19,325 nucleotides of DNA from a virus: the UHGV virus genome UHGV-0136548; one strand, given 5' to 3'. Below, piece by piece: positions 15,953 to 18,138 of this stretch. A program made the position numbers and the translations under genes. The notes under the pieces are model-generated. The model saw only the letters and a program-made list of their open reading frames with translations. It was not told where the DNA came from and ran no database searches. Each line of letters opens with the position of its first letter. Position 1 is the stretch's first letter.

Positions 15953-16866
15953 CCAGAATCACTGAAGAGCGTATATCAGAGATTATTTCCCGTATCGAAA
16001 TGTATGGTCACGGTGCTGGATATACGGCAGATGAAGTATTGGCACTTGCCCAAATGGCTTTGGCGGCTTGCAAAGATGATAAAAAAATGAAGCTTATCGA
16101 CTTGTTAGTGAAGGAGCTGCCTAAGTGCGGCGGGTGGCCTGATGGAATGAGTTATTGTTACCTACCCAGTGTCAATTTAATGGCACCATGCGCGACTTTT
16201 GCTTTTGGCTCAGACCACAAAAAAGACACTTTCTTTGGGCGCAATTTTTGTTGTGAGATTGAGCTTCCAATTGGTGACCTTGATAGCGATGAATACCAGT
16301 CAGTTGTCACTCGCGAACAATACGAATCAGCTCTCATAGCGTCGCAGAAAGTCGAGTTCAATGGTGATGAACTTGAAAGTAAGACTTACAGGTTGGATTT
16401 TGGGCAATGGCTGGAACAGCAACGCGGGAAAATCGATGTGGACTGTGGTTGTGTGTCCACTGAAACATTCATGCACTGGCTGCGGGTAGCTTACGAGGCT
16501 GGCAACTATCCGGATATTCCGGATAGTTCGGTGCCAGGGCCAGGAAAGGGCGTCACCGGTGAACGTATCCGCATTAAACCGCATGTTTATCGCGAACTGG
16601 TTAACCGTCTCCACGATACAGCGATCAAGTGTGCTGGCACCCAGCAATTACGAGAAAGAATTAGCCGTGTTTTGGGCGACGTTATTACACCAGATCATCA
16701 TAAACAAGCCGAGAAAAGTGGCCTGGAAAGGTGTCACCTTGAGGCGGCATTAAACATTAAGCCGGGGCATACGCTTGGCATTATTGATGCACTATTGGTT
16801 CATAAGATGGCCAGGGCTTTATTGCCGCTGGTGGATGCTGGCGATACAAGCGAGGGTGAAGTATGA
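15934..16866 (+). CDS. hypothetical protein (310 aa), Cys-containing
   Basis: Long ORF overlapping its neighbours at both ends by a few nt. No family recognised. Confidence 0.5.
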   Translation: MAQKEMTRITEERISEIISRIEMYGHGAGYTADEVLALAQMALAACKDDKKMKLIDLLVKELPKCGGWPDGMSYCYLPSVNLMAPCATFAFGSDHKKDTFFGRNFCCEIELPIGDLDSDEYQSVVTREQYESALIASQKVEFNGDELESKTYRLDFGQWLEQQRGKIDVDCGCVSTETFMHWLRVAYEAGNYPDIPDSSVPGPGKGVTGERIRIKPHVYRELVNRLHDTAIKCAGTQQLRERISRVLGDVITPDHHKQAEKSGLERCHLEAALNIKPGHTLGIIDALLVHKMARALLPLVDAGDTSEGEV

Positions 16867-17225
16867 GAGTTGCAGATCACATCAAACACCTTGAAAGAAT
16901 TATCGAAAACGGTGAACTCTTAAGAGATCAGATGAGACGCACGGCAGAAGTCAGAGAGGCGATAATCCGCAGTCAGGCTGGTAAATTAAAGCAATTATCA
17001 GAGATTAACGCGCTATACAAGAACAGACGTAACCGGGCGGCGCTGCGGCTTCAGAAAGCACGTAATGAAATTAAATTGGTGGAGCCAAAACTGAAAAAAC
17101 AGATTCAGCGTTACGATCAGCAAGATGCTTTTTATGCCGCCATCAAGGCGGCTGCTAATGAAATAGGCATCTGGAAGTTGCTGGTGGAGAAAGCAAAGAC
17201 GAAGTTAAATGCCAACGAAAGCTGA
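16863..17225 (+). CDS. hypothetical coiled-coil protein (120 aa)
   Basis: ATGA overlap upstream with GAGGGTG RBS; Lys/Arg/Glu-rich helical sequence. Confidence 0.5.
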   Translation: MRVADHIKHLERIIENGELLRDQMRRTAEVREAIIRSQAGKLKQLSEINALYKNRRNRAALRLQKARNEIKLVEPKLKKQIQRYDQQDAFYAAIKAAANEIGIWKLLVEKAKTKLNANES

Positions 17226-17299
17226 ACTACAGGTACCCACCAGCACATACAGAAAATGATTGTTTCCACATCAAGGAGATTTTAATGTTTCACTGAACA

Positions 17300-17437
17300 T
17301 TAAGTAAGCCAGTGCATAATTCCATTTTTTACTGACCTTAAAAGCAAAATCAAAACGATGATGAGGATGATCGCCAGAATCTGGCTAATAACAGGCGCAT
17401 CTAAAAATGCACTCAGGAACTGAAAAAAAGCAGTCAT
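17300..17437 (-). CDS. candidate 45-aa hydrophobic peptide (type I toxin-like or small membrane protein)
   Basis: MTAFFQFLSAFLDAPVISQILAIILIIVLILLLRSVKNGIMHWLT. AAGGA about 9 nt upstream on the minus strand. Sits in an otherwise ORF-poor 660-bp region. Confidence 0.3.
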   Translation of the reverse strand: MTAFFQFLSAFLDAPVISQILAIILIIVLILLLRSVKNGIMHWLT

Positions 17438-17479
17438 TAAGGTGGTTCCTTGTCAAATGTAAAGGAGCACTTGCTCACG

Positions 17480-17508
17480 TTGACGTAGAAACCCAACCCC
17501 TATATAGT
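17480..17508 (+). promoter_or_regulatory. near-consensus sigma70 promoter (TTGACG-17 bp-TATAGT)
   Basis: -35 at 17480-17485, -10 at 17503-17508. Flanked by a 9-bp inverted repeat GCTCACGTT (17473-17481) / AACGTGAGC (17535-17543). Confidence 0.4.
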
Positions 17509-17598
17509 TGGATTCGGTGAAAGAAAGTCGTTAACGTGAGCTTACGGCACATGTTTTCGGAACAACATCAGGGAACGGCTAATTCCTTGATGCGGATG

Positions 17599-17617
17599 GG
17601 GTCTGTAATGCAGACCC
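17599..17617 (+). other. stem-loop about 100 nt downstream of the predicted promoter
   Basis: GGGTCTG-taatg-CAGACCC, 7-bp stem. No clean U-tract follows. Confidence 0.35.
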
Positions 17618-17886
17618 TATCTATTAACGTCATGATTGCATCTCAAATTTTCTCCTTATCTTCATTAATCAAAATTCATTTCATTTGTGAAACATCACAA
17701 TATTTAGAAAATGGCCCTCTTGCAAGTGCATAACTTTGTGGATAAATCAGGAAGAAAAAAGTTGATTCTGCGCACGGCAAGGCAGATAAGCTGTGCACAA
17801 AAATCAATGGGAAAAGAAAAAAAATTAAAAGTTACTTTGCTGGTTAAATAATAGTCGTTACGCAATTGTTCTGGATGGGATTTGAT

Positions 17887-18138
17887 ATGCACGATTGGAA
17901 TATTGCAGCTAAAAGTCAGGAAGAACGGGATAAGGTTAACGTTGATCTGGCTGCCAGCGGTGTGGCGTACAAAGAGCGATTGAACATACCTGTCATAGCT
18001 GAACAGGTAGCCCGCGAGCAACCAGAGAATCTGCGCACCTATTTCATGGAACGGTTACGGCACTATCGGCAGTTAAGCCTCCAGTTGCCAAAAGGGAGCG
18101 ATCCGGTGTATCAGAACGAGGATGCACCAAAAAAATAA
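17887..18138 (+). CDS. hot: homolog of DNA polymerase III theta subunit (HolE-like)
   Basis: [36 protein letters not shown] aligns closely with my recollection of E. coli HolE ([36 protein letters not shown]). Start set at ATG 17887; the track's longer ORF begins at TTG 17866. Confidence 0.8.

Follow-up and report, generated by a model that had tools for sequence, protein, structure and literature searches.

A conserved structured RNA element facing an orphan hydrophobic micro-ORF in P1-like phage-plasmids: a candidate antisense-controlled peptide locus

The interval between the genes pmgV and hot in the virus genome UHGV-0136548, of which we analysed a stretch of 19,325 nucleotides (nt; hereafter the window), holds a highly conserved, strand-asymmetrically structured and unannotated RNA-like element with its own invariant promoter, accompanied by an orphan micro-ORF (open reading frame) on the opposite strand and by a promoter that looks to have been captured from the host. 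The best-supported reading of this arrangement is a small peptide controlled by an antisense RNA, in the manner of a type I toxin–antitoxin (TA) locus. We hold this reading tentatively, as plausible and unproven, and we place less trust in a true toxicity of the peptide than in its antisense control. The region is that of phage P1 (NC_005856, 85791–86692), to which positions 17100–18000 of the window are 99.0% identical, and other P1-like phages match the same positions at 99.7–99.9% identity.

With tblastn and blastn we searched plasmids (229 records), phages (13), IMG/VR (54 loci), E. coli genomes and metagenomes (19 contigs), and all of these searches led to the same three alleles: a P1 type, a P7/SJ46 type (about 96–98% identical) and a divergent type whose peptide is only 58–60% identical. 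All three occur in P1-like elements of Escherichia, Salmonella and Shigella. Their comparison delimits a highly conserved core block at 17473–17660, which extends from the left arm of an inverted repeat and the −35 hexamer of a plus-strand promoter, through the predicted RNA, up to a minus-strand Shine–Dalgarno (SD) motif, AAGGAG. Between the P1 and the divergent allele the block is 91% identical, with 16 mismatches and one 1-nt indel in 183 nt. The corresponding values are 77.5% for the minus-strand ORF of 45 amino acids (aa), 65% for the spacer between block and ORF, 69% for the 3′ tail and 76%, with a 19-nt indel in addition, for the AT-rich 5′ leader, and the proportion of differing synonymous sites (pS) in hot is 0.40. 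In the P7/SJ46-type elements (about 97 plasmids) the block is 97.6% identical. As its identity lies far above that of the flanks and of the synonymous sites of hot, the block is under strong purifying selection at the nucleotide level. This conservation profile, together with a folding z-score of −6.2, is the best evidence that the element goes beyond chance. Furthermore, conservation runs past the last hairpin of the predicted RNA to the minus-strand SD, which argues that the minus strand is functional as well, and block and ORF are linked in all 19 metagenome contigs.

On the plus strand, the block encodes a predicted structured RNA of about 110 nt (17515–17625), with a single-stranded 5′ end of 13 nt followed by three stem-loops, which folding of this segment places at 17528–17560 (SL1), 17566–17592 (SL2) and 17594–17622 (SL3). 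The minimum free energy of the RNA is −43.8 kcal/mol (z = −6.17), and none of 200 shuffled sequences was as stable; the minus strand of the same segment reaches −30.2 kcal/mol (z = −3.5), a strand asymmetry of 13.6 kcal/mol. The plus strand folds better because several of its G·U pairs become C·A on the minus strand. All three stems were kept when six variants were folded jointly with RNAalifold. Across these variants the substitutions fall mostly in the SL2 loop and in the linkers, and SL3 carries one compensatory U-A to C-G change and two pairs that alternate between G·U and A-U, a pattern that fits the plus strand. The hairpin with a 7-bp stem that the initial annotation had placed about 100 nt downstream of the promoter is SL3: it has a perfect 7-bp core (17599–17605/17611–17617), lengthens to 13 bp when G·U pairs are counted and is found 80–108 nt past the predicted start. 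With its poor U-tract (UAUCUAUU) it is at best a weak intrinsic terminator, and a terminator scan did not call it. A covariation analysis of both strands returned one compensatory pair, with unimpressive shuffle controls, and was otherwise uninformative because nearly all pairs are invariant. Rfam 15 gave no match at the gathering threshold anywhere in the window, hence no c4 RNA, and a permissive Rfam search of 17150–17950 yielded only sub-threshold chance matches, the best of them to BsrG at 15 bits where 55 are required.

Such a block might be conserved as a DNA element serving protein binding, replication, DnaA titration or recombination, with the RNA fold and the ORF as by-products. DnaA boxes and an AT-rich stretch do adjoin it, a 13-nt inverted repeat flanks the promoter, and most base pairs never vary, so covariation does not demonstrate RNA structure. 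However, near-invariance over 183 nt far exceeds a typical binding site, the substitutions sit in loops rather than in stems and include one compensatory change, and a difference of 13.6 kcal/mol between the strands would not be expected of a DNA site. The DnaA boxes, for their part, lie outside the block, in the host-captured segment described below. We therefore regard conservation as a DNA element as very unlikely.

The RNA would be transcribed from the sigma-70 promoter TTGACG-17-TATAGT at 17480–17508 on the plus strand, with a predicted start at about 17515; this site is PupfN, a promoter annotated in P1 as predicted. The near-consensus promoter that the initial annotation had proposed is thus present, matching 10 of the 12 consensus positions, and it is invariant in all three alleles in both hexamers and in their spacing, variation being confined to spacer bases. 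The match taken alone is not beyond chance, as a scan found two promoter-like sites against 1.5 expected. The inverted repeat said to flank it is present too, at a length of 13 nt with one mismatch (17473–17485/17529–17541) and not 9 bp, and its left arm contains the −35 hexamer. In a minus-strand RNA these arms would form a stem enclosing the hairpin AAUCCAAC/GUUGGGUU; 10 of its 12 pairs never vary, and one C-G to U·G change fits the minus strand. An operator-consensus scan of the window placed no C1 operator near PupfN or the surrounding module, which makes constitutive expression in the lysogen plausible. The scan returned four matches to the C1-operator consensus ATTGCTCTAATAAATTT with one to three mismatches (5099–5115, 8723–8739, 8772–8788 and 10864–10880; 0.09 expected), which presumably correspond to C1 operators already known from that stretch of P1. 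PupfN has no LexA box; the annotated LexA site of P1 belongs to lxr/humD.

PupfN could also be seen as an early or lysogenic promoter of hot and of genes beyond it, with the hairpins forming a cis-regulatory 5′ leader or attenuator. In the P1 and divergent alleles hot lies downstream on the same strand with no good terminator between, and work by Chikova and Schaaper in 2007 is said to have found hot expressed in lysogens, though only a late promoter is annotated directly upstream of it. Nevertheless, P7, SJ46 and L070 have neither hot nor any credible plus-strand gene downstream and retain promoter, hairpins and ORF nearly unchanged. That the module is kept in these hot-less P7-type elements argues against the RNA being a leader of hot, and the regulatory RNA for hot/humD that the initial annotation had offered as an option is not supported. 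Further, the sequence between block and hot is poorly conserved (69–76%) and consists of host-derived nrdA/ypaB DNA. A role of PupfN as a hot promoter is, in our judgement, decidedly unlikely.

The region behaves as a module (about 17235–17775) that moves as a unit across differing neighbourhoods. In some plasmids with the divergent allele (CP057430, 2177–3135) its pmgT/U/V side is replaced by the type I restriction-modification gene hsdM, so that the module boundary near 17235 acts as a recombination junction. P7/SJ46-type elements carry two unrelated minus-strand genes, the equivalents of P7 upf93.6 and upf94.2, between the module and humD; P7 itself (AF503408, about 91.7–94.3 kb) has an additional IS903 there, and the P1-type peptide allele is also found in a hot-less setting (L070). 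In a CRISPR interference essentiality screen, the region was dispensable for lytic growth (PMC10695390).

On the minus strand, a promoter resembling that of the host gene nrdA (PnrdA) lies at 17697–17745, with the −35 element TTGCAA at 17720–17725, the −10 element TATTGT at 17697–17702 and a predicted start at about 17690. It is accompanied by two DnaA boxes, TTATGCACT at 17725–17733 and TTATCCACA at 17737–17745, the latter confirmed by a scan. Positions 17707–17775 are about 90% identical to the nrdA upstream region in all 5,426 complete E. coli genomes. In these genomes nrdA has the position and orientation relative to the homologous segment that the 45-aa ORF has in the window. The homology spans both DnaA boxes and the −35 element and stops at the −10 element, with a spacing of 17 nt to the −10 element in both. 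The same hexamer geometry would place the E. coli start about 107 nt upstream of nrdA, in agreement with the nrdA leader of about 110 nt. Over a longer span, 17707–17851 is about 90% identical to the chromosomal nrdA promoter and ypaB region of these genomes, the P7/SJ46 allele being closer to E. coli than the P1 allele, and the annotated P1 gene upfO, which falls within it, encodes a homologue of YpaB (MALLQVHNFVDKSGRKK... versus E. coli MTLLQVHNFVDNSGRKKW...). To judge from the sequence, the nrdA/ypaB-like segment looks like host DNA captured by the phage; upfO probably arrived with it and would have no part in the function of the module.

Put together, these features would make the region a compact, self-contained module of P1-like phage-plasmids with convergent transcription units. 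From the plus-strand side, a strong promoter that would act independently of C1 would produce a stable RNA with three hairpins and a length of about 110 nt or more. From the minus-strand side, the PnrdA-derived promoter with its DnaA boxes would yield an mRNA of roughly 400–450 nt, made up of a structured leader of about 250 nt with a conserved SD and tiny leader ORFs, and then the gene for a single-pass peptide of 45 aa (17437–17300). Read from its 5′ end, this mRNA would comprise a variable AT-rich end, the SD with a mini-ORF and a 21-aa ORF, the complement of the plus-strand RNA, the 13-bp inverted-repeat stem, the peptide ORF and a hairpin over its stop codon. The leader SD, AAGGAG at 17652–17657, is kept in all alleles. 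The mini-ORF has its ATG at 17641–17639, with an overlapping ATGA restart into the 21-aa leader ORF (17633–17568), whose start is likewise kept in all alleles, whereas the sequences of the leader peptides are unconstrained. The ORF list holds a further leader ORF of 25 aa at 17552–17475, and the 21-aa and 25-aa frames both end at least 37 nt upstream of the start of the 45-aa ORF.

Over at least 105 nt the plus-strand RNA would match this leader with perfect complementarity, an overlap that would depend on transcription from the PnrdA-like promoter. As a cis-antisense repressor the RNA could form a duplex with the leader and have it cleaved by RNase III, or it could keep ribosomes from loading and from translating the leader; the peptide, following type I TA logic, would be a membrane-active toxin. 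We infer that both RNAs are made and interact, and that the peptide is translated and toxic. Complementarity between the 5′ and 3′ ends of the mRNA, reminiscent of hok, is clear in the divergent allele, in which 17–21 bp with −28.1 kcal/mol, equalled in none of 1,000 shuffles, bracket exactly the predicted mRNA; the 5′ end used in this test is itself a prediction, and the alignment is ambiguous there. Striking as it is by eye, a hok-like fold-back is supported only in that allele, and we discarded it as a conserved feature. YUNR loop motifs, which we examined by eye, are not conserved.

The peptide frame itself, MTAFFQFLSAFLDAPVISQILAIILIIVLILLLRSVKNGIMHWLT at 17300–17437 on the minus strand, has one predicted transmembrane segment (residues ~16–33) followed by a basic (R/K) tail. 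The highly hydrophobic 45-aa ORF with a ribosome-binding site that the initial annotation had pointed out is confirmed, with its start 42 nt from the −35 hexamer of PupfN. Its grand average of hydropathicity is 1.6, and values of 1.6 and 1.7 across alleles indicate that hydrophobicity is maintained. The SD (AAGGA, 17447–17451) lies 9 nt upstream of the ATG, and its core AGGA is kept across alleles at a spacing of 8–9 nt despite a spacer indel. The locus therefore has the small (<60 aa) hydrophobic peptide ORF with its own ribosome-binding site that is generic to type I systems. Conservation in close relatives had been set as a test of the peptide, and the frame is intact in all three alleles, covering 19 of 19 unique variants, and in 227–228 of the 229 plasmids. 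The ORF is free of indels, whereas its flanks carry several. Over codons 4–23 the ratio of nonsynonymous to synonymous differences (pN/pS) is 0.23, with a pS of 0.33 that is similar to hot. On balance, the 45-aa ORF is probably a real gene, although we say so with some reserve.

Homology searches leave this peptide isolated. Pfam, NCBIfam, PHROGs and PADLOC contain no family for it, and phmmer against 1.84 billion representative proteins found no homologue except truncated copies of the peptide itself. A word-indexed search and degenerate-pattern scans of GTDB genomes, IMG/VR and metagenomes recovered the same three alleles, in P1-like elements only, which limits comparative power. The exact 45-aa sequence is indexed in 5,275 blocks of a public assembly collection. 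Hok/Gef, Ldr, TisB, Ibs and Fst were considered as identities for the peptide and set aside, as none matched in sequence; the Hok/Gef family of Pfam (PF01848) gave no match up to an E-value of 10, and no type I toxin model of NCBIfam matched.

The ORF also contains or adjoins several possible RNA structures. By inverted-repeat analysis, an AT-rich hairpin, TTAATGTT/AACATTAA, covers its stop codon (17282–17303, minus strand). In the divergent allele it reads TTAATGTC/GATATTAA, which amounts to one compensatory U-A to C-G change and one G·U pair; this comparison was read by hand, the automated count being confounded by an indel. The hairpin is possibly a 3′ stabiliser or a weak terminator. A terminator-like hairpin, GTGCAT/ATGCGC with a T-rich tail (17395–17412, minus strand), falls within codons 9–15 and is invariant in all alleles. 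Identity between alleles is about 91% in the 5′ third of the ORF and about 69% in the remainder, and this could reflect a constraint on the peptide, an RNA element or both. Further, the last 12 codons of the ORF (17310–17343) show an imperfect long-range complementarity, with arms of 7–20 nt, to the region of its translation start, initial codons included (17403–17443). The nonsynonymous changes M41V and H42R of the divergent allele keep this pairing as U·G on the minus strand, and it may sequester the start codon.

The weight of the evidence could be distributed differently, in that the plus-strand RNA may be a phage small RNA with another job, acting in trans on host or phage mRNAs or by transcriptional interference with the PnrdA-like promoter. 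The ORF would then be a harmless membrane protein or not expressed, and there would be no TA system. It is true that the strongest signals (conservation, fold z-score and promoter) concern the RNA block and not the ORF, that constraint on the ORF is modest, with C-terminal frameshift and IS1 variants tolerated, and that the RNA has a single-stranded 5′ end with a conserved CU-rich, anti-SD-like UUCUCCUUAUC (17650–17660) downstream. Block and ORF are, however, always linked, and the boundaries of the module (about 17235–17775) shift together. Conservation past SL3 to the minus-strand SD and start indicates a minus-strand function too, and the RNA has no Hfq-type terminator. A small RNA with another job is thus unlikely, to our mind, if still worth keeping in view.

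Several observations also weigh directly against an antisense-controlled peptide. Only three alleles exist, which keeps covariation to a minimum, with one compensatory pair. The U-tract of SL3, poor as it is, makes the 3′ end of the small RNA uncertain, and the minus-strand promoter, for which homology is the sole argument, agrees with the consensus at just 8 of its 12 positions. The 5′–3′ fold-back reaches p of about 0.03 in the P7 allele and about 0.5–0.6 in the P1 allele, which is that of the window. For the peptide, the overall ratio of nonsynonymous to synonymous substitution rates (dN/dS) between the P1 and divergent alleles is a modest 0.45; simulated sequences keep such a frame open by chance in 12–13% of cases, and when the BLOSUM score is considered jointly the probability becomes about 0.04. 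Codons 24–45, with a pN/pS of 0.79, are near-neutral save for the replacement of hydrophobic residues by hydrophobic ones. One plasmid (NZ_AP026785, pIPCEC31_2) carries IS1 inside the ORF at about residue 31, and in several variants from databases the C-terminus is frameshifted or replaced beyond residue about 34–37, one such end being ...SVMVMTPTY. Evidently the tail of the peptide is weakly constrained or can be dispensed with. The peptide belongs to no known toxin family, and a literature search found no transcript, translation or toxicity data for the module. Lehnherr et al. in 1993 reportedly identified phd/doc as the only addiction function of the cloned P1 fragment M95666, yet that fragment holds the module. 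Two papers on P1vir RNA sequencing do not mention the loci of the module. For the type I TA-like locus that the initial annotation had suggested, then, the architecture has become more complete, with a PnrdA-like promoter and a predicted leader that would be fully complementary to the plus-strand RNA; what does not come up to it are the single compensatory pair, the modest coding statistics and the lack of a known toxin family.

The existing annotation of the interval tells a different story. Mapped onto the window, pmgV occupies 16863–17225 and hot 17887–18138. The start of hot may be the TTG at 17866 given by the ORF finder or the ATG at 17887; the P1 record carries the longer form and flags the alternative start. 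Between the two genes the same record lists upfM (about 17408–17521; 37 aa), upfN (17536–17733; 65 aa) and upfO (17711–17851), all on the plus strand and of ‘unknown protein function’. Besides these, it has three predicted sigma-70 promoters (P2upfM, P1upfM and PupfN), the late promoter LPhot and a stretch bearing two DnaA boxes. The initial annotation had described the interval as the largest non-coding gap of the window, which stands with regard to credible genes (pmgV ends at 17225 and hot begins at 17887 or 17866) and does not stand with regard to the P1 record. The older record M95666 marks an ‘nrdA-like promoter’ and a dnaA box on the minus strand. The 45-aa minus-strand ORF is unannotated in the P1 reference; in some plasmids it appears as the PGAP hypothetical protein WP_000123562.1, and it is also present in the SJ46 record.

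If the P1 record were right, UpfM and UpfN would be the functional products and PupfN would simply express UpfN, just upstream of which it lies; both proteins are annotated in the P1 reference. We tried both as real genes and rejected them: upfM is absent from the divergent allele, and the start, frame and C-terminus of upfN differ between alleles through 1-nt and 19-nt indels. The only portion of upfN retained across alleles is the part that overlaps the conserved block. On this comparison of sequences upfM and upfN are probably spurious annotations and not genes, and we give functional Upf products next to no chance. In PADLOC, the one library scanned for both, neither upfN nor upfO has a family match. 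The P1 GenBank annotation had already predicted PupfN and the promoter with DnaA boxes (Lehnherr et al. 1993, record M95666; NC_005856), and it differs from our reading in its products, which are plus-strand proteins where the comparative data speak for an RNA without coding function on the plus strand and for the 45-aa ORF on the minus strand.

Among known systems, the module is closest in layout to hok/sok and its relatives pnd, srnB and flm of enterobacterial plasmids. As in these, a small hydrophobic peptide gene would lie at the 3′ end of an mRNA of about 400 nt with a long leader, and a strong convergent promoter just upstream of the peptide start would give a short structured RNA antisense to that leader. 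A conserved leader SD and start stand at the far end of the overlap, the setting is a low-copy plasmid prophage, and in one allele the 5′ and 3′ ends of the mRNA are complementary. Membership of the hok family fails on two points, as the peptide has no similarity to Hok/Gef and no mok-like frame overlaps its start. Sok RNA is about 64 nt long, whereas the predicted antisense RNA has about 110 nt and three hairpins. The fold-back of the P1 allele, furthermore, is not significant.

With tisB/istR-1, shoB/ohsC and zor/orz, the module shares the head-to-head arrangement of RNA and peptide genes, in which the RNA promoter lies a few tens of nucleotides from the peptide start. Control could act far upstream, at the ribosome-loading site of the leader, as IstR-1 does at the standby site of tisB. 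It differs from these systems in having no sequence similarity to them, no LexA box and a predicted complementarity of at least 105 nt compared with about 20. The P22 sar/ant, lambda oop/cII and P1 c4/ant pairs likewise set a short, constitutive, structured phage RNA against a convergent transcript; their sequences differ, and in place of an immunity regulator the module would have an orphan membrane peptide as its target.

The block of about 190 bp is non-coding, exceeds the adjacent protein genes in conservation, has neither an assigned function nor an Rfam family and is partnered by an orphan peptide; taken as a whole, this makes it a candidate new antisense-RNA system. The P1 reference should apparently be revised here, as it lacks the minus-strand ORF and includes upfM and upfN, both probably spurious, as well as upfO, a relic of ypaB. 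In its boldest form, which we consider a long shot, the antisense reading would mean that P1, a classic model among plasmid prophages, has besides phd/doc another module, for addiction or abortive infection, that has gone unrecognised. This would be a new type I family in which a host-nrdA-derived promoter with DnaA boxes ties the toxin to host replication or DnaA status, held in check by a constitutive three-hairpin antisense RNA. For P1-like phage-plasmids, the candidate module could aid the maintenance of the prophage, the exclusion of other phages or, through its captured DnaA-regulated promoter, a coupling to the replication of the host.

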